Source: a virus. Taken from it: a DNA stretch of 64,000 nucleotides. The stretch is taken from positions 1-64,000 of the IMG/VR virus record IMGVR_UViG_3300042673_002211. The stretch is one strand, 5' to 3'. The position numbers and the translations under genes are program-made. The notes under the pieces were generated by a model that saw only the letters and a program-made list of their open reading frames with translations, was not told where the DNA came from and did not search any database. Below are positions 3 through 42,921 of this stretch, piece after piece (position 1 is the stretch's first letter; each line of letters begins with the position of its first letter).

Positions 3-2645
3 ACAGGTGGGCTCCCTCAATATCTACTTAAAAAAATACAACTACTCAGAAACGAGTACGATATCTACTTGGTTGAATGGTCTAATCATAGTGGAGGTTT
101 TTTTGTTGTACAGCGAGATCAACTAATTGAACTTTTAGGAGATAAATTCTTTGAGATAGGAGAAGATAAAGGGAATTTATTTTACATAATCTCCTCAATT
201 AGACCCGATATTATTCATTTAGAAGAATTTCCTGAATTTTTTATGGATTCTTTTATAGCTAAACAACTCTATAAACAAAATAGAACGTATGCTATAGTAG
301 AAACGTCTCATGATAGTTCGTTTACTCCCGAACAAAAACAGTTCTTCCCCGACCATTATGCATTCATATCGGAATGGCATATGAACCAGTATAGAAACGA
401 TACTATACCAAAATCCACTGTATACTATCCCATAGAATATAAGAAACGACCAAATAGAGCAGAAGCTTTAAAGGAGCTAGGACTTGATCCTTTAAAAAAA
501 CACGTGTTGCATGTTGGATTATTTACCCCTAGAAAAAACCAAGCAGAGTTTTTTGAATACGCCCGTAAATTCCCTGATGTAGAATTTCATTGTTTAGGTA
601 ATCAAGCAGGCAATTTCCAGCACTACTGGCAACCTCTAATGGAAAAGAAACCTATAAATGTTTACATTTGGGGAGAAAGAAAAGACGTAGATAATTTCTA
701 CAGGGCAGTAGATCTGTTTTTGTTTACCTCTAAGGGTACCATTAACGATAAGGAAACAATGCCTTTAGTTATTCGTGAGGCCTTATCTTGGAGACTACCT
801 ACTCTAATCTACAATCTCCCAGTTTATATGAATTACTGGGATCAGTTTAAAACTATAGAATATTTAGATTTTGCTAGCTTTAACAGCAACGTAGCTAAAA
901 TCGCTAAAACACTAGGGATAGAAGAAAAACAGATAGATATTAGCAAAGAAGCATTTATAATTTCTACTTACCCCCTAACAGATTCTGTAATACAAACCAC
1001 TAAAGAATGTATTAGGGCAGTTAAACAAACTGGTCGTAAGGTTATCTTGACATCTCATATCCCAATCCCACTTGAATTAAGCAACGAGGTAGATTATTGT
1101 ATAAATGATAATAATAATATTTTAACAAAACATACCTTCTATAGTAATTCATGGATGCAAACCTCCAATTATAAGGCTAATGTTAACCTAAGAGGAGAGA
1201 ATAACGACGTTTACCATGGCCCAGCATGCTATACTAATTACTATAACGGAACTGCTTTAGCTAAAAGTTTAGGTTTTAAAAAAGTATACTTACTTAACTA
1301 CGACTATATCTTAAAAGATGCTACCTACATTGATAGGATAAGCGGAGTTTTAGATAAAAAAGATGCATTTTTAGGGACTGATGAGGCCCTAGAGGGTAAA
1401 CAAGTTGTAACTTGGTTTGCAGCATTCAAACCTGATTTATTTTTAGATTTACCTAAAGTAGAGGTAGCCCAAGATTATGATAGTTTGATGCAATTGTGGG
1501 GTGCTGAATCAAACGGGTACGAAAATCTAATGTATCATGCCTTCAAAAACACAGATAATATACATTGGGAACCCAAAGAAAATTTTTACAAGTATACCCA
1601 AGAAACATTTACTCATAAAGACTATTCAAGGGTAGAATATTTTACAGTACTACCTAGTACACGTAAAAACGAAATAGTACCATTTGTTCAAATATCAAAC
1701 AGCAACGACAGTAGAACAATCAAGTATATTTTAGAAAAAAATGGTGAAGTTATAAAACAGCAAGAATATGCTGTTATTAATAAATTCCACACTTACGATG
1801 CTATACCCTACTTAGAAGAAGATGAATTTAAAGTTATCTTTGAAGTATATGATTTACATACCGGAGACTTTTTAGAGAGTAAAGAAATTTTTATAGACAA
1901 ATACTATAGAGATACTAAATTACATAACAATGGTTTGTTTGAATGGTTTGAACCTAAAATCAAACTAATGCATTTGGTAACTGAACCTCAAACAAATCCA
2001 AAAGAAATCCGTTCAATCGAAAACGTAAAAGATTTTTGTGAAAAAACTGGTATTGTGTATGAGCAACGTGTAAACGAGATTTGGAAAGAAATCCCACCAA
2101 CAGAAAACTGTGCGCGACCCTCTGAGGTACAAGACAAACCAGGATACTATAAACTAGCTCCGGGCCATTATGGATGTTATCTAGCTCATAAAAACGCGTT
2201 ATTAGCGCAAGACAATCCCCAATACGACTACATCCTAATATTTGAGGGTGACGTTATTATAGACAGTGACTACGCGGAATTGTACGAGTCACTTAAGCGC
2301 TTTACACGATTATCTAAACAAACAGACATGGATATTATCGGATTTGGCAATCCATGGCAAAACAGGAATTTAAACGGACCTAAAGTAGAAGACATTTACA
2401 CTGATACTACTCCCTTTATACCAGCTCAATCCTATCTTATAAACCAAGATAAAATAGAAAAGATAGTAGATCTAATTAATTCAACACCTTGGGATGCTTT
2501 TGATCTATGGGTTTGTAATGTAGCTAAATTGAGGGTAGGAATAGCAGAAAAAATCTACACTAAACACCTTCCGGGATTCAGCATAATAGAGCAAGAGTTT
2601 AAAGGAACAGATGAGAATAGTCCCTTAATATACGCGGCTGAATGA
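3..2645 (+). CDS. multidomain glycosyltransferase (GT4/GT-B N-terminal, GT25-like C-terminal), 5'-truncated by window edge
   Basis: Frame open from nt 3 (TGGLPQYLLKK...), so the true start lies upstream of the window; GT4 motifs HVGLFTPRKNQ and ETMPLVIREAL; C-terminal GHYGCYLAH...LIFEGDV is GT25-like. Confidence 0.8.
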   Translation, partial: TGGLPQYLLKKIQLLRNEYDIYLVEWSNHSGGFFVVQRDQLIELLGDKFFEIGEDKGNLFYIISSIRPDIIHLEEFPEFFMDSFIAKQLYKQNRTYAIVETSHDSSFTPEQKQFFPDHYAFISEWHMNQYRNDTIPKSTVYYPIEYKKRPNRAEALKELGLDPLKKHVLHVGLFTPRKNQAEFFEYARKFPDVEFHCLGNQAGNFQHYWQPLMEKKPINVYIWGERKDVDNFYRAVDLFLFTSKGTINDKETMPLVIREALSWRLPTLIYNLPVYMNYWDQFKTIEYLDFASFNSNVAKIAKTLGIEEKQIDISKEAFIISTYPLTDSVIQTTKECIRAVKQTGRKVILTSHIPIPLELSNEVDYCINDNNNILTKHTFYSNSWMQTSNYKANVNLRGENNDVYHGPACYTNYYNGTALAKSLGFKKVYLLNYDYILKDATYIDRISGVLDKKDAFLGTDEALEGKQVVTWFAAFKPDLFLDLPKVEVAQDYDSLMQLWGAESNGYENLMYHAFKNTDNIHWEPKENFYKYTQETFTHKDYSRVEYFTVLPSTRKNEIVPFVQISNSNDSRTIKYILEKNGEVIKQQEYAVINKFHTYDAIPYLEEDEFKVIFEVYDLHTGDFLESKEIFIDKYYRDTKLHNNGLFEWFEPKIKLMHLVTEPQTNPKEIRSIENVKDFCEKTGIVYEQRVNEIWKEIPPTENCARPSEVQDKPGYYKLAPGHYGCYLAHKNALLAQDNPQYDYILIFEGDVIIDSDYAELYESLKRFTRLSKQTDMDIIGFGNPWQNRNLNGPKVEDIYTDTTPFIPAQSYLINQDKIEKIVDLINSTPWDAFDLWVCNVAKLRVGIAEKIYTKHLPGFSIIEQEFKGTDENSPLIYAAE

Positions 2646-3604
2646 AAATTTGCCAGGTACACCCAGCATGTGGGATAGATGTTCCACCAAAAGATTGGGG
2701 TGCAATCGAAAAGATTGTATGGGAACTACATTTAAACTTTTTAGCGCAAGGACATGAGTCAGAAATCAAATTCGCAACTGAGATTAACCCTGGTGACTTT
2801 GATATTGTTCACTGTCATGTTGGTAATCTAGCAACCATGCTCAGGGAACAAAACGTTCCCTATGTTTTCCAATTACACGATCATCATGCTTATCATTATG
2901 GAAAGGATAGTTATGTTTTTAAAGAAAACATGGAAGCTATAGAGGGTTCTATAATGTCTTTAGTTCCCGCTCGTTATTTGGTAGATTATTTTGACCATCC
3001 AAAAGTACAATACTTTGCTCACGGGGTTAACACTAAAGAATTTTACCCTGTAAAAAAGTCTAAACCCACAGAACCTAAACTACTAATGATAGCCAATAAC
3101 GGATTAGCAGGCAATCCAGGCTTTGATAGGAAAGGATTTACATACGGGATAGCTTTAGCTCAATCTCGTAATTTACCTATAACTGTAGCTGGTCCCTCAA
3201 ACAATAAACATTTTTTTAATAATCATTTATGGACCTTGGCTTACCCAAAGCTTAATATTATATTTGATTTACCAAATAGTAAATTATTAGATTTGTACCA
3301 CCAACACGATATATTTATACATCCTACAATGTTGGAAGCAGGCCACCCAAACCTAACCATGATTGAAGCAGCATCGGCAGGTCTACCAGTTATAGCAGAT
3401 TGGGAATCTAAAACAGATTTTCATGGTGGTTGGAGATCACCCCGCGATATATTTGAAATGGCTAAAGGATTAGACGATATAATAAGTAACTGGGATAGCT
3501 ACAGGCAAAGATGTTCAGATACATCTAAAGAGCTAGATTGGTATAATAGAACAAAAGAATTAGTAGAGTTATATGAAAGAAGTTTTGAAGGAAATTTACA
3601 ATAA
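2642..3604 (+). CDS. GT4 family glycosyltransferase
   Basis: VPPKDWGAIEKIV N-terminal motif; EAGHPNLTMIEAASAGLPVI acceptor/donor motif. Confidence 0.85.
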   Translation: MKICQVHPACGIDVPPKDWGAIEKIVWELHLNFLAQGHESEIKFATEINPGDFDIVHCHVGNLATMLREQNVPYVFQLHDHHAYHYGKDSYVFKENMEAIEGSIMSLVPARYLVDYFDHPKVQYFAHGVNTKEFYPVKKSKPTEPKLLMIANNGLAGNPGFDRKGFTYGIALAQSRNLPITVAGPSNNKHFFNNHLWTLAYPKLNIIFDLPNSKLLDLYHQHDIFIHPTMLEAGHPNLTMIEAASAGLPVIADWESKTDFHGGWRSPRDIFEMAKGLDDIISNWDSYRQRCSDTSKELDWYNRTKELVELYERSFEGNLQ

Positions 3605-4766
3605 TGTAAAGATTTTAGGGTTACCTTACAAGGAATCCAAGAATAGTTTTATATGTCACTTTCTTGAGGGTGCTTTTTTAGAAGTTTTAGGTTCTGAAAA
3701 AGGAGAATATACTGTAAAGTTTATAGATCAAGATAAAGATGAAGTAGTACATGAAAACACTTTTTCAAATAATATGTGGACTCGAACTAACCGTAAATAT
3801 TTTACTAATTGGTTAGTTCAAGTATATGAGGATGACGAATTGGTTTTTGAACACAAATATAACGCTAAAGGTAAACGAGTATACATCCATTTAGATTCAT
3901 CAGCCATTGGGGATACGTTAGCTTGGTTTCCATATTTAGAGGAATTTAGAAAAAAACATAATTGTGAACTTATAGTATCTACATTCCATAATGAATGGTT
4001 TGCTAAAACATATAAAGATATTGAATTTGTAAAACCTAGTACTGTAGTTCATGATTTATATGCAATGTACACTATAGGGTGGTTTTATCAAGATAATCAT
4101 GTAGTTGATTTAGACCGTAATGTACGTGAGTTTAAAAATCTACCTTTAGCCCAAACTTCATCAGACATTTTAGGTTTAGAGTATACTGAAATAAAACCTA
4201 AAGTATATCTAAAGAAAAAACCAAAGTCAATCAAACAAAAATATGTTGTAATAGCTCCACATGCTTCAGCCCACGCTAAATACTGGAACCATCCAGGTGG
4301 GTGGCAACGTGTTATAAACTGGTTAAATGATAATGGTTATAAAGCCGTTATGATTACTAGCGAACCCCTGAACGATGAATGGCATGATTCTAAACTAGGA
4401 GGCACCCTAAAAAATGTAGTCAATAAAACTGGTAATTTACCACTTGAGGATAGGATGAACGATATTATACATGCTTCCGCTTTTATTGGTGTAGGTAGCG
4501 GTTTAAGTTGGTTAAGTTGGGCATTAGGACAAAAAACAGTACTCATTTCAGGATTTTCAGAAACATACAGTGAATTTAAAGATTGTGAACGTATTTTCAC
4601 CCCACCCAATTTATGTTCAGGGTGCTTTAACCGTGAATGGCTAAATCCCGGTGATTGGGAATGGTGTCCTGAACATAAAGATACACCACGCCAATTTGAA
4701 TGTACTAAATCAATCACACCAGATATGGTGATAAAATCTTTACAAAAAGTATTAGATATTTATTGA
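3573..4766 (+). CDS. TibC/Aah-like protein O-heptosyltransferase (GT9-related)
   Basis: SAIGDTLAWFPYLEEF, FIGVGSGLSWLSWALG, LISGFS and the C-terminal CSGCFN...WCPEH...FECTKSI four-Cys motif. Confidence 0.75.
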   Translation: MKEVLKEIYNNVKILGLPYKESKNSFICHFLEGAFLEVLGSEKGEYTVKFIDQDKDEVVHENTFSNNMWTRTNRKYFTNWLVQVYEDDELVFEHKYNAKGKRVYIHLDSSAIGDTLAWFPYLEEFRKKHNCELIVSTFHNEWFAKTYKDIEFVKPSTVVHDLYAMYTIGWFYQDNHVVDLDRNVREFKNLPLAQTSSDILGLEYTEIKPKVYLKKKPKSIKQKYVVIAPHASAHAKYWNHPGGWQRVINWLNDNGYKAVMITSEPLNDEWHDSKLGGTLKNVVNKTGNLPLEDRMNDIIHASAFIGVGSGLSWLSWALGQKTVLISGFSETYSEFKDCERIFTPPNLCSGCFNREWLNPGDWEWCPEHKDTPRQFECTKSITPDMVIKSLQKVLDIY

Positions 4767-4860: not shown

Positions 4861-6969
4861 ATGGCAGAAACTTTAGTATCACCCGGTGTTTTAGCAAGAG
4901 AAAATGACCAGTCATTTCTAACTCAATCTCCAGCTACAGTTGGAGCAGCTATCATAGGACCCACTACAAAGGGCCCAGTTGAGATTCCCACAATTGTAAC
5001 CACCTATTCAGATTACATCAATAAATTTGGTGGTGCTTTTATTAGTGGTGGAGATTCCTACTCATTTTTTACAGCATTAACAGCTTATAACTACTTTGTA
5101 AACGGAGGTACTTCACTTTTAGTTGCTAGAGTAGTAAGTGCTTCTGCTACTTGGGCTCCTGCTACTACAGCTGGAACTGGAACTTCAATCACTAATGGAA
5201 TTCTAGCAACGACAGCATCTGTTACAGTTAGTAGTGCTAGTTTAGCTCCTTTTATTACTCCTACTGGATCATTTTCAATTAGCGGAATCACTATTGCTGT
5301 TACTGGAAGTACACCACCTGCAAATACAGCAACAACTATATTTGTAGCTTCAGGTTCAACACCTGCTAATACTGTTACAGCAATTACAACAGCATTTAAT
5401 TTTAGCTCTTCTATAGCTCCTTATAGCTCATCTTTACAATTTATTGTAGCTAGTGCTTCTGGATCTACTGGTTTATTATTTAACACTACATCTTCACAAG
5501 TAGGAACTGCTTTTTTAGCATCAACTTTAAATAATTTTACTTATGTATCTGGAAGTACTACTACTAATTTTAGTGGAGCTACAAATGCCGAATCCCTTGT
5601 TTTAGAAACCCTTTCAGAAGGTGTTATTATGAATAGTTCGGGATCGTTAGATTCTTCTGGAGCTTTAACCAATGGTACTTCAGATAATGTTAGGTGGTCT
5701 ATCCAAAACTCAAACACCTCTTCGGGCACATTTACTTTATTAGTAAGACAGGGTAATGATAATACAAATAACCAAATTGTATTAGAGACTTGGACTAATT
5801 TATCATTAGATCCAACTCAACCAAACTATATTGCCGCAGTAATTGGTGACCAAACTCAAAATTACAACCCATCAACCATCCAGCTTACAACTTCCGGTTC
5901 TTATGCTAATAGATCGAATTATATTAGAGTAAAATCAGTTACCTCTCCAACCCCAGATTACTTTGATAATAATGGTGTAGCTAAATCTTCTTTTACAGGT
6001 TCAATCCCTATAAATGCAAGTAGTTCTTTTGGAGGTGCTACTGGTAACCCCGTAGCAGCAGGTGGAAATAAGTATTACGATACAATTAGTAATACAAACA
6101 CTCAAGGTCTAATAGCAGGTGACTATACTAACATGATTAATTTGTTGGCTAACCAGGATGATTATAGATTTAATTTAATAACAACTCCAGGTTTAGTAGA
6201 TGCTTTCGCTAGTAACACTTCAGCTATTACAAGTATTGTTACAAATACTCAAAATAGAGGAGATAGCATTTACATTCCCGATCTAGTTGGGTATGGTTCA
6301 ACTGTAGGAGCTATAACTTCACAAGCTGCTTCTAGAGATACTTCGTATGCTGCTGCTTACTGGCCATGGTGTCAAGTCATTGACCCAGAAACAGGTAAAA
6401 ATGTTTGGGTACCAGCTTCAGCCCTAATCCCAGGTGTTTATGCTTTCAATGATAGAGCAGCTGATCCTTGGTTTGCTCCTGCTGGAATTAACCGTGGTGG
6501 TTTAGGTCAAGTAATTAGAGCAGAACAAAAACTCTCTCAAGCTAACCGCGATACATTATATACTGGCAAAGTCAACCCACTTGCAACATTCCCAGGAACT
6601 GGAGTTGTAGTGTACGGACAAAAAACATTACAAACTAAGTCATCTGCTCTTGATAGAGTAAATGTACGTAGATTATTAATTCAACTTAAGAGCTTTATTT
6701 CTCAAGTTGCTAATAACTTAGTATTTGAACAAAATACTTTAACAACAAGAAATAATTTCTTATCGATTGTAAATCCATATCTAGAGTCAGTACAACAGAG
6801 ACAAGGTTTATACGCGTTCAGAGTAATTATGGATGATTCCAATAATACTGCGGATGTAATTGATAGAAACCAGCTAATTGGGCAGATCTTCATTCAACCA
6901 ACTAAGACAGCTGAATTCATTTATCTCGACTTCAGTATCTTACCAACTGGTGCAACATTCCCAGCGTAA
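4861..6969 (+). CDS. contractile tail sheath protein
   Basis: SPGVLARENDQS start, AYWPW, PWFAPAGINRG, GQKTLQ...SALDRVNVRRLL, IQPTKTAEFIYLDF. Confidence 0.95.
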   Translation: MAETLVSPGVLARENDQSFLTQSPATVGAAIIGPTTKGPVEIPTIVTTYSDYINKFGGAFISGGDSYSFFTALTAYNYFVNGGTSLLVARVVSASATWAPATTAGTGTSITNGILATTASVTVSSASLAPFITPTGSFSISGITIAVTGSTPPANTATTIFVASGSTPANTVTAITTAFNFSSSIAPYSSSLQFIVASASGSTGLLFNTTSSQVGTAFLASTLNNFTYVSGSTTTNFSGATNAESLVLETLSEGVIMNSSGSLDSSGALTNGTSDNVRWSIQNSNTSSGTFTLLVRQGNDNTNNQIVLETWTNLSLDPTQPNYIAAVIGDQTQNYNPSTIQLTTSGSYANRSNYIRVKSVTSPTPDYFDNNGVAKSSFTGSIPINASSSFGGATGNPVAAGGNKYYDTISNTNTQGLIAGDYTNMINLLANQDDYRFNLITTPGLVDAFASNTSAITSIVTNTQNRGDSIYIPDLVGYGSTVGAITSQAASRDTSYAAAYWPWCQVIDPETGKNVWVPASALIPGVYAFNDRAADPWFAPAGINRGGLGQVIRAEQKLSQANRDTLYTGKVNPLATFPGTGVVVYGQKTLQTKSSALDRVNVRRLLIQLKSFISQVANNLVFEQNTLTTRNNFLSIVNPYLESVQQRQGLYAFRVIMDDSNNTADVIDRNQLIGQIFIQPTKTAEFIYLDFSILPTGATFPA

Positions 6970-7015: not shown

Positions 7016-7504
7016 ATGGCAGTATTAGGTATAAACGATATTTTCTTCACCCCCTTCGAACCTAAAGTTCAGAATAGGTTTATCTTCTCGATTACAGGCA
7101 TCCCCGCCTTTATGATTAAGGGCTTATCAGCGGTAGGCTTCGAACAAGGTGAAATTAAATTGAACCACATCAACATCTATCGTAAAGTAAAAGGTAGAAC
7201 TTCTTGGAATGATTTAACCATGACATTATATGATCCGATCACTCCTTCAGGAGCTCAGGCCGTAATTGAGTGGCTTCGTTTACACCACGAATCAGTAACT
7301 GGTAGAGATGGCTATTCCGACTTCTATAAGAAAGATCCAACTATTCAGATTTTAGGTCCAGTAGGCGATATCGTTTCAGAATGGGTAATCAAAGGAGCTT
7401 TTATTAAAAATGCTAATTTTGGTGAATATAACTGGGACACTGACGCAGGTGCTGTAAACCTTACTGTAACATTAGGAATGGATTACTGTGTATTAAACTT
7501 CTAA
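7016..7504 (+). CDS. tail tube protein (T4 gp19-like)
   Basis: FEPKVQNRF, KVKGRTSWNDLTMTLYDPI, GYSDFYKKD; directly follows sheath. Confidence 0.9.
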   Translation: MAVLGINDIFFTPFEPKVQNRFIFSITGIPAFMIKGLSAVGFEQGEIKLNHINIYRKVKGRTSWNDLTMTLYDPITPSGAQAVIEWLRLHHESVTGRDGYSDFYKKDPTIQILGPVGDIVSEWVIKGAFIKNANFGEYNWDTDAGAVNLTVTLGMDYCVLNF

Positions 7505-7530
7505 TAAAAGTTTACATAAAATTAAATTTA

Positions 7531-7557
7531 AGCTTGGCTATGCCAGGCTTTTTTTTT
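7531..7557 (+). terminator. intrinsic terminator overlapping a TTG-N20-TA promoter
   Basis: AGCTTGGC-TAT-GCCAGGCT followed by a T run. Confidence 0.8.
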
Positions 7558-7572
7558 ACCTTATAGTCTAAT

Positions 7573-7923
7573 CTATAAAGGACAGGTTTTTTAACATCTA
7601 ACACTACTCAAAAATATGGAAACAATATCATTTCTTTTAGGTGTAGCTGCTGTTATTACTGCTGTAATAGTTGTGGTTACGTTTATGAACTATGTGACAA
7701 TCAAAAATCTCATTAAAGATATAAGAAATCTTGAACAGGTTGAACAAAGGTTATACGATCATTCTAACAATCTAGACCAAACCTTCAGGCAGGAACTAGA
7801 AACTATCTACCGTCATATCGACAGTAGGGTGGATAAGCTTGAAGAAAAAACAAAAAACCAGTTAAAGGACATTACTTTAACTAAATCTAATTAATTAACC
7901 CGTTAGAAAACCTCCCTTTATAG
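7573..7923 (+). repeat. imperfect inverted repeat (7573-7595 / 7902-7923) enclosing the 92-aa gene
   Basis: CTATAAAGGACAGGTTTTTTAAC pairs with GTTAGAAAACCTCCCTTTATAG: 21 pairs including one G-U, with one 2x1 internal loop. Confidence 0.85.
7616..7894 (+). CDS. small membrane-anchored coiled-coil protein
   Basis: N-terminal hydrophobic helix then heptad-rich region; has its own promoter-like site. Confidence 0.7.
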   Translation: METISFLLGVAAVITAVIVVVTFMNYVTIKNLIKDIRNLEQVEQRLYDHSNNLDQTFRQELETIYRHIDSRVDKLEEKTKNQLKDITLTKSN

Positions 7924-7959
7924 TATTTATAAACATATAACCGTTATAACAAATAATTT

Positions 7960-8697
7960 ATGAGCGAATTTAAATTCCCAACCGAAATGGTTGAACTACC
8001 CTCAAAGGGTTTCTTTTATCCAACAGATCATCCTCTAAAAGAAGGCAAATTAGAGATGAAATATATGACAGCTAGAGAAGAAGATATCCTAGCTAATGCT
8101 AACTACATTCAACAAGGTATAGTTTTAGATAAATTACTAGAATCCCTTATTGTTAGCCCTAAATTTAATTTAGATGACTTGTTAATAGGCGATAAGAATG
8201 CTTTATTGGTGGCCGCCCGCATTTTAGGATACGGTTCAAATTATACGGTATCTTACGGGAAAAATACACAAACTATTGATTTATCTAAGTTAGAAAATAT
8301 TAATAATGATTTTACTAATTTAACTGAGGAATTAAATGAATTTTCTTACGTGATGCCCGCTACTAGCACTCACATTACTTTTAAGTTATTAACAAGTAAA
8401 GACGAAAAATCCATTGATAAAGAATTAGAAGGTCTTAGAAAAGTTAATCCTAATGCAGGTGAGTTAACTACTCGCTTTCGCTTTATTATCACCTCAGTTA
8501 GTGGTAAACGAGACATGAGTAGTATAATTGACTTTATTGATAATTATTTTTTAGCTACAGATTCAAGAGCATTTAGAGAACACTATAAAAATACTATGCC
8601 AGATGTGGATATGTCCTATGAGGGGGAGGACGGTCGATTTCGTACGATTCCCATTGGACTTGACTTTTTTTGGCCTGACGTCGCAGACCGTCTCTAA
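7960..8697 (+). CDS. tail assembly chaperone / baseplate hub assembly protein (gp26-like)
   Basis: VELPSKGFFYP, MTAREEDIL, LLIGDKNALL, C-terminal DFFWP; between tube and tape measure. Confidence 0.8.
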   Translation: MSEFKFPTEMVELPSKGFFYPTDHPLKEGKLEMKYMTAREEDILANANYIQQGIVLDKLLESLIVSPKFNLDDLLIGDKNALLVAARILGYGSNYTVSYGKNTQTIDLSKLENINNDFTNLTEELNEFSYVMPATSTHITFKLLTSKDEKSIDKELEGLRKVNPNAGELTTRFRFIITSVSGKRDMSSIIDFIDNYFLATDSRAFREHYKNTMPDVDMSYEGEDGRFRTIPIGLDFFWPDVADRL

Positions 8698-9019: not shown

Positions 9020-11449
9020 ATGGATGATACTACTCAAATAATAAAAAATATTAAAGATCTTCTTAAGACATTAGGACCTGAAGGTGAAGGTTACCAAGGT
9101 CAATTAGATGCTTTAAACCAAAGTAAAACTAATACTAAAGTTGCAGCCTATAATCAACTCTTAAAGGATGTTCGAAACACTGTAAGAGAGTTAAACAATG
9201 ATTTAAAATTTACTTATGATTCTTGGACTAGTATTATAAATGAAGTTACTAAAGCTAACGTAATATTAGGCAATACTAAAAAAGGTTTTAGGGAGTTTCA
9301 AAATATCTCTAACCAGTTGTTATATAGCCAAGAAAATATAACAAAGACTTCTGAAAAAGAAATTCAAAATCTTCAAAAAAGATCTGAAAAAAGTAAAATT
9401 CTTTTAGAACAGCAACAAAGACTATTACAATCTCAAAGAGTTAAAACAGATGAAGAAAAAGCAGCTTTAATTAATTTAAAAGGAGTTTTAAAAGAAAATG
9501 TAGGTGAAGTTGCAAAAACTAATCAAGCTTTAGAAAGTCAATTATTAGATTTAAAAGCTATTAATGCTACTATAGGATTAACTGGTGCTATATTAAAAGG
9601 TATTGGTAATATCCCAGGCCTAAGTAAAATAGGCAATATGCTTAAAGTTGATGATGCTGTAGACTCAATGCGTGAGTATGCAGCCGAACAACTTAATCTA
9701 GAAAAAAATACAGATGAGTATCAAAAGAAATTAGCTAGAATAAATAAAGAACTAGAAAATACTGGGTCTCCCGCGAAGCAAAGAAGATTAATTCAAGAAA
9801 GAGAAGATTTAGAACAAGAGGCTCGTAATAAATCTTTAAATTTTGTTACTAAATTAAATACAGCTTATGTAGGTATTAGTAAGTTAATTGGAGGTTTTAG
9901 TAAAGCTTTAGTTGATCCTCTAACAATATTTACTGCTTTAGCTAAACAAGCCGGAAAAATTGATGAAGAATTAGTTGGATTCCAAAAGAATTTAATGCTT
10001 TCTCGCTCAGAAGCTATAACTCTTCGAAAGGAATTATTACAAGCTGCAAGAGCTACTGGTTCTAATTTAATTAACACTAGTGATTTAGCTAAAGCTCAAT
10101 CCAATCTTAATGAATTATTAGGAGTTCAAGGTAAAATTGATGCTGATAATTTAGTTGTTCAAACTAGACTTACTAAACTAGTAGGCATCCAGGCTACTGA
10201 GGCAGCTCAATTACAATTTTTTGCTGAAGCTACCGGAGAAGATTTTGATCAACAATATACCGCTCAATTAAAAACTACCCAAGAAGTTAGTAAACAATTT
10301 GGGGTGCAAATCAACCAAAGAAAAGTATTAGAAGAAGTTGGTAAACAGGGTGCTTTTGCTCTAGCTCAATTTAGAGGTTCCGTACCAGCATTAACAGAAG
10401 CTGTAGCTAAAGCTACTGCTTTAGGTACCTCATTAGGTGCAGTAAATCAAGTAGCTAGTTCTTTACTTAACTTTGAAGATTCAATTTCTAAAGAATTAGA
10501 AGCTGAATTATTAATTGGTAGAGAAATTAACCTAGAAAGAGCTCGTTATTTTGCTTTAACTAATGATATCAATGGTTTAATGGATGAGCTTAATAATGAA
10601 ATGGGTACATTCAGTGATTTCCAGGGTATGAATGTTATCCAGCAACAAGCATTAGCTGAATCATTAGGAATGAACGTAGGTCAATTAAGTGAAATGCTAT
10701 TAAAGCAGGAATACTTAAATGAACAAGGTGAAATAATTAAAGATGTAACAGACGAGGAACTAAGAAATAGACTTGAATCTTTATCTACCCAAACAAAGTT
10801 TAACCTAGCTATAGAAAAAATGCAAGGTTTAATAGGAGATTTAGTCCAGGGTCCCCTAGGTCATTTTATGAATATAATGGGTGCTATTTTAGAAAACTCA
10901 GTAGCTTTAGGTGCAATTTTAGGAGTTATAGCTACAGTACAAATAGCTAAAATGGTTAGTGGATTTGCTCAAGCCGCTATTGGACTTAGGGCAATGGCTA
11001 CGGCTGCTAAAGGTACAGCTATTGCTAATGCTGCAGCCTATGCTATTGCTAATCCTTTTAAAGCTCTTGCGGGTTTGGCTGTTGCTGGTATTGCTATAGG
11101 GGGCATTGCTGGGTTAATAGCAGGTGCTATCGGAAACGATATTCCAGGTGCTCAATTTGGCGCTGAGGTAACCGAACCTGGTTTTATTAAAGTAGGTGAA
11201 GTTGGTCCTGAAATTGTTCACCTTCCCGAAGGAGCAAAAACCACACCATTAAATGTAGCTGAACGTGGTGATCTAAGAGCTACTGCTACTCAAGTTGCCC
11301 CATTAGACTTAAAACCAATGTTGGATGAATTAAAGAGTCTTAGAGAAGGATTTAATCGCCTCCCCTTAGCTATATCAAACATTAAGATGGTTACAGATAT
11401 GAATCGCCTAGAGATAGGTAGAATGACAAATGGTGCACAAGTCCAATAA
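9020..11449 (+). CDS. tape measure protein
   Basis: Long helical Ala/Leu/Gln-rich protein with hydrophobic C-terminal segments and a VGEVGPEIV motif; position after chaperone. Confidence 0.85.
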   Translation: MDDTTQIIKNIKDLLKTLGPEGEGYQGQLDALNQSKTNTKVAAYNQLLKDVRNTVRELNNDLKFTYDSWTSIINEVTKANVILGNTKKGFREFQNISNQLLYSQENITKTSEKEIQNLQKRSEKSKILLEQQQRLLQSQRVKTDEEKAALINLKGVLKENVGEVAKTNQALESQLLDLKAINATIGLTGAILKGIGNIPGLSKIGNMLKVDDAVDSMREYAAEQLNLEKNTDEYQKKLARINKELENTGSPAKQRRLIQEREDLEQEARNKSLNFVTKLNTAYVGISKLIGGFSKALVDPLTIFTALAKQAGKIDEELVGFQKNLMLSRSEAITLRKELLQAARATGSNLINTSDLAKAQSNLNELLGVQGKIDADNLVVQTRLTKLVGIQATEAAQLQFFAEATGEDFDQQYTAQLKTTQEVSKQFGVQINQRKVLEEVGKQGAFALAQFRGSVPALTEAVAKATALGTSLGAVNQVASSLLNFEDSISKELEAELLIGREINLERARYFALTNDINGLMDELNNEMGTFSDFQGMNVIQQQALAESLGMNVGQLSEMLLKQEYLNEQGEIIKDVTDEELRNRLESLSTQTKFNLAIEKMQGLIGDLVQGPLGHFMNIMGAILENSVALGAILGVIATVQIAKMVSGFAQAAIGLRAMATAAKGTAIANAAAYAIANPFKALAGLAVAGIAIGGIAGLIAGAIGNDIPGAQFGAEVTEPGFIKVGEVGPEIVHLPEGAKTTPLNVAERGDLRATATQVAPLDLKPMLDELKSLREGFNRLPLAISNIKMVTDMNRLEIGRMTNGAQVQ

Positions 11450-13987: not shown

Positions 13988-14287
13988 ATGAATCGTTATC
14001 AAACTATCCCAACTACTAAAACTACCTCAGGTAGAACTATTTACCGAACAGTTAAATATCCTGAGATTCCTTTAAATCCAAATGACATTTATGTTATTGC
14101 CAATAAAGGAGATAGGTATGATATTTTAGCTAACCAATACTATAGCGACTCATCCCTATGGTGGGTTATCTCTACGGCCAATAATAATGTAATCCAAAAT
14201 AGCCTATACCTACCAGAAGGAACTCAAATCCGAATTCCCTCAGACGTTACTTTAGCAATAGATAATTTTGAAGTTATTAACTCATGA
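13988..14287 (+). CDS. LysM / tail X-like baseplate protein
   Basis: GDRYDILANQYYSDSSLWWVISTAN...GTQIRIP. Confidence 0.85.
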   Translation: MNRYQTIPTTKTTSGRTIYRTVKYPEIPLNPNDIYVIANKGDRYDILANQYYSDSSLWWVISTANNNVIQNSLYLPEGTQIRIPSDVTLAIDNFEVINS

Positions 14288-17200
14288 ATTTAATAGGTGA
14301 AAGTTTTGATGATTTTGTAGGGACTCAAGTTAATCTTAGACAAAAATTTTATGGGTCATCAACCACAGTTCTTGAAGGTAGAGAACAATATCTCTATAAT
14401 AAACAACCCTTTATTAAACTAGTCTCTAGTGTTAATATAGAAGCTGCAAAACTAAAAAAATTAGGTTTACCTGAAAGTTTAGCAGGTTCTAATTTAGCTA
14501 AATCTTTTGTATTATTTGCTGGTACTTCTGAATTTAAAGGCCTTAATAATGATGGTCAAGACCAATTTAGTTTTAAAGCAGGTTTAAATAATGATCAATC
14601 TATTTTAGGGGGTTCAGTTTATGGTTTAGGAGGCCTTGAATTTGGTCAAGTACCTATGCCTGGTATAACTTCAGCTACAGTCAGTTATAAAAACAGAGGT
14701 TCATTAAAAACTGCTACTATTAATGTTAAAGCTTATAACACAACTCAATTAAATATAATTGACGCTCTTTATTTAAGATTAGGTTACACTGTTTTATTAG
14801 AATGGGGGTGGGGAGCTAACTATTTAAATAATAAGGGTGAAGTAGTCCCTCAAATAAGAAGAACTTTAGCTAATGAATTTTTAGATGGTACATTAGATAG
14901 TGGAAATATTTTACCTGCAATTACAAGGAGTAGAAGAAATCTAAGTGGCAATTATGATGCTCTTTATGGTACAATAACTAATTTTAATTGGTCATTCAAT
15001 CCAGACGGCACTTATGATATTACTATAAGTTTGGTTAGTGTAGGCAATATTATTGAATCTTTAACTATAAATGATTATATTGGTAAAGGTAATCTTTTAA
15101 CCTCGGATGATTTTCAAGAAGTACTTGATAATGTTAAAAATCAATTAAGTAACCTTCCACAAAATAGATCTATTAATATTAACGGAACTCAAGTTCCAAT
15201 TACTGTAAATTTTCAATCTTATGGTGGAAGTTCTTATGGTGGGGGTGAATATGTAACTATAACTGATAATAATGGTAAACTCTTAGGCTCAGGCCCCTCT
15301 CTTACAGGTCGTTTTACATATGAGGATGAAGCAATCTCAGCCCTCATAACCCTAAATACAGGTTTAGTTTCTCAAACTGAAATAACTGGCTCAGAAATAG
15401 GAGTTGTAGGAGGTAATGCTGGGCTTAATTCTTTAACCTATTATTTATATAAAAACATCCAATTAGAGTTAGATAATCCTAATAAAGCTATAATTCTTTC
15501 AAAAAGAAAAGGACAAATTGATTCAGTATTATCTGTTTTAAAAGATGGTAGCACAACTTATGCTTGTAGAATTAATTGGGAAGGAAAAAGTGCAGTTAAC
15601 GATTATATAAAATTTAGAACACTATTAAGATGGATTCAAGATAATTTAATATATGATAATGTTAATGGTGCCAAAAAATCAAAAGCTATAACTTTTGATT
15701 TAAATGTAGGTGATAATCTTATTTATAAAAATAAATATTCTGTAGCTACTGATTTTACTAAAGTAGTTACTCGTAATATAGGTTATCCTGATTTAAATAC
15801 TGGAGAAAATACTTCAGATACTATTGATCTATTAAACCTTCCACCTGATGTTGAGTTTACTAGTGATAAAAACCCAAATGCGGGTAAATTAATGAATGTT
15901 TTTTTAAACTTAACTTGGTTAGTAGAAACTTTAAAATCTAATGTTGATGACGAAGGTAATATATCATTATTTAGGTTTTTGCAAGGTATATGTCAAGGTA
16001 TAAACTCATCTTTAGGGCATGTTAATAGTTTAGATGTAGTAGTGGATGAAGAAACTAACCAAATTAAATTTATTGATGATAAACCTATCCCCGGTATTCT
16101 AAAAGATTTTAATAAAAATACCACCCCAACTAAATTTCAAGTATATGCTTTTTCTCCAAATGGGGGTAATTTAAGTGGTAGTTTTGTTAGAGATTTTAGT
16201 ATTAGAACAGAGATAACTAATAAATTAGCAACTACTTTAGCAGTTGGAGCACAAGCATTAAATGCCGTTGTAACTGAAAATGCTACAGCTTTACAATCTT
16301 GGAATGAGGGTTTAACAGATAGAACCGCTAAAATTAAACAAGAGGCTACAGATGCCCCAAAATTAGCCTCAACAGAATTTGGAAAATTCAACGAGGCTGG
16401 GTTAAACCCAACTGCTTACTCAAAACTAACCTTATCCCAACAACAAGCTCTTTTACAATCTGTTCAACAAACTCTTCAACCCTCTTCATCTCAAACTGCA
16501 CTCGAAAAATACAAAAATGAGATAGTAGCTTTTGTTACACTACTTGAAAAATATGATGATAAAACTTTAAGTGTAGATGACCTTAGTCAACTAAATAACT
16601 TAAATAAAAACTGGCAAAAATTCTGGTCTCAAACAATAGCCGAAGCAGAACAAAAGGCATCACCCAATGGTGTTGGATTTATTCCTATTAACCTAAATTT
16701 AACAATGGATGGTTTATCAGGTATGAAAATTTACCAAACATTTATCATTGATAGTAAATTTTTACCCTTAAACTATCCCGAAAAACTCCAATTTCTAATT
16801 AAAGGTATTTCACATAATATTGATAGAAATAGTTGGACTACTCAAATTGAAACTTTTAGTATACCTAAAGAAATAACTTCAAATAGCTCACAGGGTACAC
16901 CAGAACCCCAAACCCCAGATACCACAAAAACTGAAAAAGAAATAGGATTCCAAATTAAAGAATCTAATATAAAATACGAAGATAAAGATTCAACTCGTAA
17001 ACCAATTAAAGAATTAACTTATAGTAATAATGCTATAATTTTAATTAAACGTTTTGAAGGACTTAGACTAGAAGCTTATAAACCAACTCCAAAAGATAGA
17101 TGGACTATTGGTTACGGTAGTACATTTTATAAAAATGGAAAAGCAGTTGGTCAAGGAGATAGGTTAGGTTCTGAAAAAGTAGCTACAGAACTTTTAAAAG

Positions 17201-17466
17201 TTTCACTTAATAAATTTGAAAATATTTTAAAAACTAACCTTTCAACAGTTAAACTTAATCAAAATGAGTTTGATGCTTTAACTGCTTTTAATTACAATTT
17301 AGGTCCTAAATGGTCTATAAACAGTGGTCTAAGAGATTTATTAGTAAGTAATAATTACACTGGGGCTGCTAATAAATTACTAGAATACAATACACAAGAT
17401 GGTGAAGTATTAAGAGGTCTAACTAGGCGTAGAAAAGCAGAAAGATTTTTATTTACCAAAATTTAA
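14284..17466 (+). CDS. baseplate hub protein with C-terminal GH24 lysozyme
   Basis: PMPGITSA...LRLGYTVLLEWGW hub-like N-terminus; C-terminal IKRFEGLRLEAY...WTIGYG...QNEFDALTAFNYNLG...GLTRRRKAE. Confidence 0.8.
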   Translation: MNLIGESFDDFVGTQVNLRQKFYGSSTTVLEGREQYLYNKQPFIKLVSSVNIEAAKLKKLGLPESLAGSNLAKSFVLFAGTSEFKGLNNDGQDQFSFKAGLNNDQSILGGSVYGLGGLEFGQVPMPGITSATVSYKNRGSLKTATINVKAYNTTQLNIIDALYLRLGYTVLLEWGWGANYLNNKGEVVPQIRRTLANEFLDGTLDSGNILPAITRSRRNLSGNYDALYGTITNFNWSFNPDGTYDITISLVSVGNIIESLTINDYIGKGNLLTSDDFQEVLDNVKNQLSNLPQNRSININGTQVPITVNFQSYGGSSYGGGEYVTITDNNGKLLGSGPSLTGRFTYEDEAISALITLNTGLVSQTEITGSEIGVVGGNAGLNSLTYYLYKNIQLELDNPNKAIILSKRKGQIDSVLSVLKDGSTTYACRINWEGKSAVNDYIKFRTLLRWIQDNLIYDNVNGAKKSKAITFDLNVGDNLIYKNKYSVATDFTKVVTRNIGYPDLNTGENTSDTIDLLNLPPDVEFTSDKNPNAGKLMNVFLNLTWLVETLKSNVDDEGNISLFRFLQGICQGINSSLGHVNSLDVVVDEETNQIKFIDDKPIPGILKDFNKNTTPTKFQVYAFSPNGGNLSGSFVRDFSIRTEITNKLATTLAVGAQALNAVVTENATALQSWNEGLTDRTAKIKQEATDAPKLASTEFGKFNEAGLNPTAYSKLTLSQQQALLQSVQQTLQPSSSQTALEKYKNEIVAFVTLLEKYDDKTLSVDDLSQLNNLNKNWQKFWSQTIAEAEQKASPNGVGFIPINLNLTMDGLSGMKIYQTFIIDSKFLPLNYPEKLQFLIKGISHNIDRNSWTTQIETFSIPKEITSNSSQGTPEPQTPDTTKTEKEIGFQIKESNIKYEDKDSTRKPIKELTYSNNAIILIKRFEGLRLEAYKPTPKDRWTIGYGSTFYKNGKAVGQGDRLGSEKVATELLKVSLNKFENILKTNLSTVKLNQNEFDALTAFNYNLGPKWSINSGLRDLLVSNNYTGAANKLLEYNTQDGEVLRGLTRRRKAERFLFTKI

Positions 17467-17471
17467 GTATT

Positions 17472-18092
17472 ATGGCTTTATATTACCCTCCTAATCAAAT
17501 AAAACCTAATTTATTCGCCAATAGTGGTGAATTTGTATTTTCTTCTAATACTTTACCATTTAGTGGTTCATATCACCAACTATCAAATGGTAGATACTAT
17601 ACCGGAGCTTTACATTCAAATGATAGTTTGGAAATTATCCCTATTACTTCTCTAACTCAACCTAGTAGTATATCAAATAATCCTAGAGTTAATGTTACTT
17701 TAGTGGTAATAGATGATACAAATACTGTAAATAATACTTATTCTAGATTAACTAACCAAAATACTTCACCCAAAGAACTTCCAGTTAACCTTCAAAACTT
17801 ACCAACCCTACAAGATTACCAGATAGGAGAATTTACAAGATATTTTGCTAAAAAAATTAACCAAGACCTCTATATTGAGTTTACCCAAGATTTATATGAT
17901 AGGTTAATTTCTCAAAATCCTTCAATATATTACGAACAATATACAGCATTTAAACTTCCTTGGAGATTAATAGGAGATAAACAACAAGTAGCTCGTACTA
18001 ATAAAAACATAGTAGATTTAACATCTCAACAATTTAATTTATCTAAATTTGGAAGATACCTAAAGGATGATTACCTTAAGTACTACAAATAA
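17472..18092 (+). CDS. hypothetical protein (tail/baseplate region)
   Basis: ORF track; PTLQDYQIGEFTRYF region; context. Confidence 0.6.
   Translation: MALYYPPNQIKPNLFANSGEFVFSSNTLPFSGSYHQLSNGRYYTGALHSNDSLEIIPITSLTQPSSISNNPRVNVTLVVIDDTNTVNNTYSRLTNQNTSPKELPVNLQNLPTLQDYQIGEFTRYFAKKINQDLYIEFTQDLYDRLISQNPSIYYEQYTAFKLPWRLIGDKQQVARTNKNIVDLTSQQFNLSKFGRYLKDDYLKYYK
18049..18079 (+). promoter_or_regulatory. TTG-N20-TA host-type promoter upstream of PolA-like gene
   Basis: TTGG at 18049, TACCTTAA at 18072, same spacing as the other sites of this class. Confidence 0.55.
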
Positions 18093-18103: not shown

Positions 18104-19372
18104 GTGTTTTGGTTAATAGAAAATAAAGGTCAACTAGAGGAGTTTTGCTATAAGGGTTTTAAAGAAGCGTTTGTGGAGATAATCCCATACTCTCCATTTA
18201 TTCACCCAATCCAAAATTCCATCTGTGCTATCTACATCCGTCCAATAAGGGATGTAAAGGGGTATTTGCTACCCATTTTTCACACAGAGGTAGAAGAAAA
18301 TTTATTTGAGGATAAGGTATTTAAGTTTATAAAGGGGTTAGATAAAATATATTGTAGGGATAAAAAAGAATTTCTCCATTATTTTCCTCTTAAGCAGCTT
18401 ATTGACATAACCCTATCCTCCACTACGTATATACAACCCACTTCGGCTCACGAATTTATATATAGAAAATACCATGATAGACCGGATGTAAACATATTAG
18501 TTCCAATAGTTAAACATTATGAATATTGTGAATCTATTTTTGAGGAATTAGAGCATTTGATAGATGAGCCTGTTAACGAGTTTTATAATCATAAAGTAAG
18601 TTGGATGCTATACGGTATTGAGCAAGCGGGATTAACCGTTGATACCGCGCTATACGAGCAGTACTTTGAGCAAAGCACGGAGGGCGTGGTCTATACTCAA
18701 TATAACTTTAAAACGCTAACAACACGCCCATCAAATACATTCAATAAAATAAATTATGCCGCACTTAGTAAAGAGAACGGGTGTAGGAAAGCTTTTATCC
18801 CGCGTAATTCTTCGCTTGTTGAGCTCGATATTGCAGCTTATCATCCTACTTTGTTGGCTAAGTTGGTTGATTATGATTTTGGTAATGAGGATATTTATAG
18901 TCACTTTTCGCAAATTTACGGATTGGATAGACAAAATGCGAAAATTCTAACCCTACAACAACTATATGGGGGGATTTTACCACAATATGAGGAGCTTGAA
19001 TTTTTTAAAAAGGTAAAAGTATATGTAGATGATTTATGGGAGGTGTTCAATAACTCTGGGCAAGTTATCGTGCCAATTTCAGGATATTGCTTTAAAAAGG
19101 ATAAGCTGGAAAACATGAACCCACAAAAACTGTTAAATTATTTGATTCAAAACTTGGAGACAGCATATAACGTTAATATATTGTGGGAAGTATTCAAGAT
19201 ATTAAAAGATAAAAAAACTAAACTTGTATTATATACATTTGATTCGTTTTTGTTTGATTGGAGCGACGATGAGCGCGAAGTTTTAACAGAGATTCAAAAA
19301 GTATTTAAAAAGTATAAATTAAACATAAAAGTTGCGCATGGAACCAGTTATGACTTTCGACCTACCATATGA
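18104..19372 (+). CDS. short divergent family A DNA polymerase-like protein
   Basis: TTRPSN, RKAFIP, motif A ELDIAAYHP, motif B RQNAKILTLQQLYG, NYLIQ, motif C LYTFDSFLFD. Confidence 0.75.
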   Translation: MFWLIENKGQLEEFCYKGFKEAFVEIIPYSPFIHPIQNSICAIYIRPIRDVKGYLLPIFHTEVEENLFEDKVFKFIKGLDKIYCRDKKEFLHYFPLKQLIDITLSSTTYIQPTSAHEFIYRKYHDRPDVNILVPIVKHYEYCESIFEELEHLIDEPVNEFYNHKVSWMLYGIEQAGLTVDTALYEQYFEQSTEGVVYTQYNFKTLTTRPSNTFNKINYAALSKENGCRKAFIPRNSSLVELDIAAYHPTLLAKLVDYDFGNEDIYSHFSQIYGLDRQNAKILTLQQLYGGILPQYEELEFFKKVKVYVDDLWEVFNNSGQVIVPISGYCFKKDKLENMNPQKLLNYLIQNLETAYNVNILWEVFKILKDKKTKLVLYTFDSFLFDWSDDEREVLTEIQKVFKKYKLNIKVAHGTSYDFRPTI

Positions 19373-42326: not shown

Positions 42327-42386
42327 TAATATTTATTATGGACATAAAATTGTAGCTAGGGCACAAAGTTATGTTAATGTTTAACC

Positions 42387-42403
42387 GCTGATCTTCGGAC
42401 AGC
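42387..42403 (+). promoter_or_regulatory. cUUCGg tetraloop hairpin in hsp20 5' UTR
   Basis: GCTG-A-TC-TTCG-GA-CAGC. Confidence 0.65.
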
Positions 42404-42851: not shown

Positions 42852-42921
42852 TAGTTTTCGATTAAAAACGTGCCCTAGCGCAATTTTGGTCGTATATTCA
42901 CGTTATAATTAAATAAATGTT

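Follow-up and report, generated by a model that had tools for sequence, protein, structure and literature searches.

The window, the whole 64,000-nt stretch of viral DNA analysed here, carries all of its long ORFs on the + strand. These include a myovirus tail module with genes for the sheath, the tube, a baseplate-hub-like protein and a protein of tape-measure size, and a gene for a 92-aa protein lies between those for the tube and the hub (Table 1). The closest named relative is Flavobacterium phage immuto, with ~70% nucleotide identity over the tube region, and the same DNA as in the window was also found in lake-water metagenomes. The host is probably a member of the Bacteroidota that does not use Shine-Dalgarno pairing, the absence of such pairing being a property of that group. 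Directly upstream of the sheath gene stand three glycosyltransferase-like genes (69–4766; GT1, GT1 and GT9 heptosyltransferase-like), and positions 14284–17466 encode a tail or baseplate protein of 1060 aa that has a phage lysozyme domain at its C-terminus (residues 922–1053, 9.4e-30). The 91-aa ORF that adjoins the lysozyme in immuto was considered as a counterpart of the 92-aa gene and found to be unrelated.

Table 1. Positions of the genes, RNA elements and signals at the two helix-closed genes and in their neighbourhood.
Feature	Position	Strand	Remarks
Tail sheath gene	4861–6969	+	Pfam Phage_sheath; myovirus tail module
Tail tube gene	7016–7504	+	
Intrinsic terminator of tail-tube gene	7530–7557	+	9-bp stem, 3-nt loop, T run; stem 7530–7550
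Candidate −10-like element TTATAGT	7561–7567	+	Putative promoter of the cassette
Left arm, outer helix (9 nt)	7573–7581	+	Partner 7915–7923; C7573-G7923 through G7581-C7915
2x1 internal loop	A7582 and C7583, facing C7914	+	
Left arm, inner helix (12 nt)	7584–7595	+	Partner 7902–7913; A7584-U7913 through C7595-G7902, including U7591-G7906
Unpaired A-rich stretch (39 nt)	7596–7634	+	−20 to +19 around AUG; unpaired in MFE and centroid
Gene for 92-aa protein	7616–7894	+	N-terminal membrane helix, then long helix
Coding-region hairpin (21 bp)	7635–7688	+	Within the part coding for the membrane helix; starts at +20
Right arm, inner helix	7902–7913	+	
Right arm, outer helix	7915–7923	+	Overlaps upstream half of next gene's extended late promoter
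Late-promoter motif TATTTATAA of baseplate-hub gene	7924–7932	+	
Baseplate-hub-like gene	7960–8697	+	phrog_150
Tape-measure-sized gene	9020–11449	+	
Late-type promoter motif, one mismatch	42329–42339	+	Directly before hsp20 left arm
hsp20 left arm	42341–42364	+	Pairs with 42870–42891
hsp20 gene, 143 aa	42420–42851	+	phrog_432, 4.9e-16
hsp20 right arm	42870–42891	+	TCGTATATTCAC motif follows at 42890–42901

The 92-aa protein belongs to a family of proteins of 87–132 aa in which the motif R-x-x-DSR-x-DK-x-E is invariant. Its AlphaFold model is one long helix (residues 2–91; pLDDT 88.6). A total of 2657 metagenome homologues were found at E ≤ 1e-3, none with a Pfam domain and all with automatic names only. 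Pfam and PHROGs searches with the protein itself gave weak or unnamed matches, and the Atlas matches were hypothetical viral clusters together with a 0.85 lead to Mu releasin. Neither this protein nor the hsp20 protein had a match among named phage records. The gene contains no embedded second ORF, so that a reading as a spanin is unsupported, and a role in lysis timing or exclusion would be a guess.

The initial annotation had described a pairing of 7573–7595 with 7902–7923 (21 bp, with one U-G pair and a 2x1 loop) that encloses a single gene. The pairing can be read directly from the sequence, and 7616–7894 is the sole + strand ORF of at least 20 aa between the arms. When positions 7565–7930 were folded, the helix was present in both the MFE and the centroid structure. 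The MFE was −78.2 kcal/mol, as compared with −61.9 ± 4.8 kcal/mol for 100 shuffled sequences (z −3.4), none of which was as low.

The energy of the duplex is not in itself exceptional: in a seed scan covering all inverted pairs with a spacing of at most 3 kb, many pairs within coding regions had −25 to −30 kcal/mol. What is exceptional is its position. Among 190 intergenic pairs, representing all combinations of the window's 20 intergenic regions of at least 25 nt, the best two compact duplexes each flank one gene, hsp20 at −33.3 and the 92-aa gene at −24.7 kcal/mol, followed by the next pair at −20.1 (mean −9.1, sd 4.05). These energies were taken on windows of 26–32 nt, since whole-region RNAduplex values are inflated by long interior loops. 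In an ungapped repeat search the arms were split at the internal loop and ranked low. No third helix-bracketed gene was seen in the remaining 9 kb of the contig. Rfam covariance models gave only two sub-threshold matches of chance level at 7490–7581 and none at hsp20, and the inner-arm word GTTCTTTGACA was not enriched (20 found, 25.7 expected).

The second of these genes, hsp20, had been annotated as having the same architecture, and this was confirmed. Its helix (42341–42364 with 42870–42891) is found in both the MFE and the centroid structure of the window sequence, with a z-score of −4.2. Of 80 hsp20 loci found, 33 complete ones at ≥65% identity were examined, corresponding to 29 distinct flank sets, of which 28 were refolded; this count excludes loci L161–L201, at ≤34% identity, and the truncated L123, L154 and L156–L160. 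The helix occurs in the MFE of all 28 refolded homologues. The arms comprise many unrelated sequences around a TAGGG/CCCTA-like core, the duplex was better by more than 2 kcal/mol on the + strand in 12 cases and on the − strand in three, and a late-type motif precedes the left arm in the hsp20 loci.

Homologues of the 92-aa gene were collected to examine whether the pairing was conserved. Protein-based searches returned 18 viral and 22 metagenome loci. With the window these made up 41 records, seven of them without a stop codon; the other 34 comprised 19 distinct flank sets, in one of which the flank was too short for evaluation. Pairing was seen in each of the remaining 18, at −24.6 to −37.2 kcal/mol and with four unrelated arm sequences. 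A profile search provided 61 more loci, of which three truncated ones were dropped, leaving 58 complete and 48 distinct, and 47 of the 48 pair at −18 kcal/mol or better. When the sets were pooled, complementarity was far from lacking at homologous loci: 62 of 63 distinct cassettes carry the helix at −20 kcal/mol or better, built from at least seven arm sequences. Helix size ranges over the 63 sets from 13 to 29 bp (<18 bp in 7, 18–21 bp in 27 and ≥22 bp in 29). The MFE structure of the full transcript contains the helix in each of 17 representative cassettes.

Covariation was analysed in a MAFFT alignment of 17 distinct cassettes. Across the inner 12 pairs, 99.0% of 203 cells were standard pairs, and both sides change in six of the 12. 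None of 500 shuffles reached the observed values, sliding the partner by 1–3 columns left 31–57% paired, and RNAalifold predicted the same helix unprompted. Because MAFFT leaves the outer helix out of register, this part was tested by comparing cognate with non-cognate duplexes. Cognate duplexes averaged −13.5 kcal/mol, and 212 non-cognate combinations, each joining arms of different type, −6.6 kcal/mol (sd 2.5). A control with non-cognate flanks discriminates poorly, 23 of 48 cases reaching −18 kcal/mol, as a result of sequence conservation in the inner helix; the comparison of outer helices does discriminate.

The non-Watson-Crick pairs also carry strand information. In the helices of the 63 sets they number 122 of 1373 pairs, and on the coding strand all are G-U or U-G; in the 17 representatives 38 cells are G-U and no 1x1 mismatch is A-C. 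The duplex of the + strand is better than that of the − strand by 4–12 kcal/mol in nine of the 17. Within one arm type, A/G and U/C variation in the right arm faces a constant U or G. As all wobbles are G-U on the coding strand, selection is indicated on the sense RNA, not on a double-stranded DNA site. Selection on the + strand transcript, first suggested for the window, is thus supported by the covariation and by 122 G-U pairs against no A-C pair across the 63 cassettes, and we consider it very probable that the helix is real and selected at the RNA level.

The position of the helix relative to the gene is also conserved. In 54 of 63 sets, pairing of the left arm ends 15–22 nt upstream of the ATG (in the window, 20 nt), and in 60 of 63, pairing of the right arm begins 5–11 nt past the stop codon (in the window, 7 nt). 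The coding-region hairpin (7635–7688) is likewise a conserved structure, with 96.9% of 357 cells paired in the 17 cassettes, both sides changing in 11 of its 21 pairs and none of 500 shuffles matching it. The long-range helix and the hairpin at +20 bound the region between them, and 7596–7634 is therefore left unpaired from −20 to +19, about the span of the footprint of an initiating ribosome. Nearly all untranslated RNA of the cassette is either double-stranded or within the stretch that a ribosome would cover, an arrangement to be expected of a nuclease shield and equally of a start-site 'frame' in a host without Shine-Dalgarno pairing. The listed ORFs of the cassette include no leader ORF on the + strand. 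The nucleotides of 7635–7688 are near-invariant even between proteins at 67–77% identity.

The promoter originally placed at 7534–7564 needs correction: its '−35' lies within the terminator, and only the −10-like TTATAGT (7561–7567) is left as a candidate. Sigma-70-like matches were not enriched in the region (11 found, 11.1 expected from shuffles). In the other arm types inspected, yTTATAkT words occur 6–10 nt ahead of the left arm. With these words, or the late-type motif in the case of hsp20, standing before the left arms, a transcript start at the left arm is plausible.

On the other side of the gene, the right arm does end at the next late promoter, as annotated, with the motif starting at 7924 directly after it. 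The motif ATATTTATAAT was matched 27 times with at most one mismatch (13.7 expected). It is taken as the late promoter because six exact copies (4829, 6985, 8996, 11456, 19808 and 28162), all on the + strand, stand 15–30 nt before structural genes. The TCGTATATTCAC motif showed no enrichment over the window (7 copies, against 6.4 expected). No canonical terminator was found downstream of the right arm. The word TTCGTATATTCAC probably represents another promoter class; it recurs intergenically before several small genes at the far end of the contig (68312–72133, beyond the window) and also stands immediately downstream of the right arm of hsp20.

The 92-aa gene was present in contigs from four lake metatranscriptome runs. 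RNA-library contigs cover 7585–7963 in pieces and, as contigs, show neither strand nor ends. A single contig, from run X16, begins at 7585 right after the Illumina adapter, 1–2 nt 3′ of the internal loop; this may be a processing site, a start site or a random fragment end. A contig from a close relative spans 7820–7963 and crosses the right arm into the next gene, so that some of the RNA may continue past the helix. Positions 7510–7580 are nearly uncovered in the four runs, which, being seen in contigs only, carries no weight for the terminator.

Comparison with relatives suggests that the gene, its helix and its signals move together. The cassette was found in uncultivated freshwater phages, in at least three genomic contexts and always at terminator|promoter junctions. 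Immuto and most relatives lack the gene, and in them the order from tube through terminator and late promoter to hub is uninterrupted; the terminator at 7530–7557 is the upstream boundary of the module, and a homologous terminator is present in the empty sites. Of 80 tail-tube loci, most have an empty tube|hub spacer of 80–130 nt that consists of terminator and late promoter, and 17 have a longer one. Four of the longer spacers hold a distant family member (26–54% identity) with the helix present in all four (−22 to −30 kcal/mol). The other 13 hold unrelated ORFs or none, and their duplexes reach only −10 to −18 kcal/mol.

Exchange of the module was visible in one locus (L002), in which the small protein has 96% identity to that of the window, as against 64% for the sheath, 69% for the tube and 53% for the hub protein. 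Nucleotide identity is 0.94–1.0 over 7500–7960 and 0.36–0.88 in the flanking genes, indicating that terminator, cassette and next promoter were exchanged as a block. In L011 and L012 the cassette lies between homologues of the window genes at 17472–18092 and 18104–19372. In L006–L010, L013–L016 and L119 it is the only + strand gene amid − strand genes, and is flanked by a − strand terminator and a − strand late-type promoter. These antisense contexts indicate that the module is its own transcription unit and that the helix does not serve, in general, for excision from read-through tail transcripts, a role that had been proposed and that also sits poorly with the strong terminator preceding the cassette. 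The cassette is present in a single copy in the 73-kb (73,230 nt) contig, and a search of genome contigs returned no relative and hence no prophage copies.

A bounded accessory gene that is exchanged between phages resembles the PeSL cassettes of T4-type phages, in which accessory genes lie between composite terminator/promoter sequences and are swapped among related myoviruses by recombination within these flanking sequences, as the sources describe them (PMC4122927; PMC2839356). Here, too, the gene is bounded by a composite terminator and promoter (7530–7557 and 7924–7932) and exchanged between relatives. The PeSL elements described there, however, are direct repeats of a local stem-loop plus promoter that act as DNA homology, whereas the repeat here is an inverted one, pairing at the RNA level across the gene. 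A direct stem-loop-plus-promoter repeat on both sides of the cassette is absent; there is only a near-direct repeat of 9–10 nt, and the long repeat is inverted.

The best reading of these results is that the two arms pair in the sense mRNA to form a conserved long-range helix, and that the one-gene expression module to which this mRNA belongs is self-contained and mobile. As to what the helix does, we tentatively suggest, at close to an even balance of probability, that it stabilises the message by shielding it and frames ribosome loading, by analogy with the hbs mRNA of Bacillus subtilis. Transcription would begin at the left arm or no more than a few nt from it, and the helix would close the message into a loop in which each untranslated part is either double-stranded or ribosome-covered. 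Such a loop would be shielded from end-dependent and single-strand-specific RNases, as in hbs. The helix would also leave a ribosome-sized open window on the start codon, which would be relevant for a host without Shine-Dalgarno pairing, and expression would thereby become independent of the site in which the module lands. Conservation of the inner helix in sequence is unexplained by shielding and hints at a sequence-specific partner; it may reflect binding of a specific protein.

An extension of this reading, which we consider unlikely, is that the stop codon, 7 nt from the helix, is brought beside the start window, 20 nt from it, so that finishing ribosomes are handed back to the AUG. If true, this would be a prokaryotic 'closed-loop' message that boosts Shine-Dalgarno-less initiation and travels with the gene, and phages would be adding a portable module for translation and stability to accessory genes such as the membrane-protein gene and hsp20.

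[quoted passage not shown] In the features that this account gives, the two systems are alike: a short monocistronic mRNA in which segments of the 5′ and 3′ UTRs pair over the whole length of the ORF, leaving the start site open. They differ in that the hbs pairing is of 14 bp and the phage helices are mostly of 20–26 bp, and in that the phage helix lies at the predicted 5′ end and has no terminator hairpin after it. In contrast to hbs, the phage helix covaries across a whole gene family and travels with a mobile module. As in a 5′/3′-UTR interaction, complementary segments lie upstream of the start and downstream of the stop codon in the sense strand. The compensatory changes come here from natural covariation instead of mutants, with at least seven arm types all of which pair.

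We rank shielding and framing first, followed by an RNase III site, a split terminator, a translational switch and a DNA-level element. RNase III processing stems are known from rRNA precursors and phage T7 early mRNAs, which are matured to a short paired end, and the icaR message of Staphylococcus aureus is destroyed by RNase III. A cut near the internal loop could similarly mature or destroy the phage message, and we regard this as possible, if on the unlikely side. The helix resembles such stems in its length of about two helical turns and its internal loop, and the rRNA duplex is likewise formed by the flanks of a long insert. Helices of at least 18 bp in 56 of the 63 sets, and of at least 22 bp in 29, are consistent with this role, as is an interruption after 12–14 bp that recurs in most arm types. 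The single RNA-library contig that starts at 7585, 1–2 nt 3′ of the internal loop, would mark a cut at the expected place, but this end may have arisen by random fragmentation. Here, however, the stem encloses a translated ORF, and seven of the 63 helices have just 13–17 uninterrupted bp, which is short for RNase III judging by E. coli substrates. In addition, with a terminator upstream and with the cassette antisense to its neighbours in some contexts, there is little read-through RNA to be cut.

It is improbable that the helix is instead a split intrinsic terminator or insulator, in which the right arm and the U-rich stretch stop the polymerase on pairing with the 5′ arm. A device of this kind would define the 3′ end and prevent reading into neighbours, read-through being antisense RNA in the antisense contexts. 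The 8 nt after the helix include at least five T in 34 of the 63 sets, and at hsp20 the right arms finish with a G+C-rich stem and then T runs, to which A runs in the left arms correspond. The T-rich stretch, however, doubles as the promoter motif of the next gene, the contig 7820–7963 bridges the site, and closure of a hairpin over 300–450 nt within a pause would be kinetically unfavourable.

In hok mRNA, 5′–3′ pairing is a hallmark, and it underlies the fold-back inhibition (fbi/tac) of these type I toxin-antitoxin loci. The phage message is similar in that its two ends pair and its product is a small membrane protein, and it might accordingly be thought inert until processed or opened, as the initial annotation had envisaged in its 'silenced until processed' option. 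It is quite improbable that the helix is such a switch. It ends 20 nt before the AUG, 7596–7634 is unpaired in the fold from −20 to +19, and this spacing is conserved. The start codon is therefore not sequestered as it is in hok, and a block of the hok or icaR type is disfavoured. The product, about twice as long as a hok-type protein, has 87–132 aa with a long conserved soluble helix, unlike type I toxins of ~50 aa, and hsp20, which shares the design, is not a toxin. In S. aureus icaR, the 3′ UTR pairs with the 5′ UTR of the same message, with involvement of RNase III, and blocks translation (PMC3868564). The icaR pairing, as reported there, covers the ribosome-binding site and represses translation, whereas the start region of the phage gene is free.

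That the arms act as DNA, as terminal inverted repeats, recombination or inversion sites, or paired operators, is very improbable: the module is mobile, its inner arms are conserved in sequence and it has a near-direct repeat of 9–10 nt (CCTTATAGT and CCTTTATAGT, at 7559–7568 and 7915–7924), but every wobble is G-U when read on the coding strand, with no A-C, the arms are wholly different between lineages yet complementary, there is no transposase or recombinase in the module, all 10 distinct tube|hub sites holding the family have the gene in one orientation, and the exchanged segment takes in terminator and next promoter beyond the arms. A DNA transposon or MITE was rejected on the strand-asymmetric wobble, the one copy in the 73-kb contig and an exchanged segment larger than the arms.

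To our knowledge, long-range pairing of 5′ and 3′ UTRs has been described for a few individual bacterial mRNAs (hbs, icaR, hilD and hok). Such a design in a DNA phage was not found reported in the literature searched, most subscription journals and supplements being outside the search. New here are the family-wide covariation, the mobile phage module, the occurrence at two unrelated genes in one phage and the framing hairpin; 5′/3′-UTR pairing as such is known. In this widespread group of freshwater phages, the helix is a covarying, family-wide trait of two accessory genes that are unrelated to each other, and it travels together with the gene. The cassettes amount to dozens of natural 'compensatory mutants' with which the effect of mRNA closure in bacteria can be asked, and the results point to an expression module, compact and independent of context, for hosts that lack Shine-Dalgarno pairing.

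Some further observations were made at these loci. The tube|hub junction (window 7505–7959; L020–L099) is an insertion hotspot, with spacers of 415–1348 nt that contain unrelated ORFs. These encode a recurrent 167–169 aa protein, proteins of 205–288 aa and one of 236 aa, none of them flanked by a helix. In L005 (3001–3261) and L103 (2501–2761), the last codons of the small gene run straight into the interior of the hub gene. This variant has lost the right arm, the promoter and the hub start, and may be an assembly chimera. In the hsp20 leader, a small hairpin with a CUUCGG loop (42374–42403) lies between the left arm and the start codon, ending ~16 nt before the ATG. A similar CUUCGG hairpin is present in divergent hsp20 homologues, and it could be a thermometer or a framing element.
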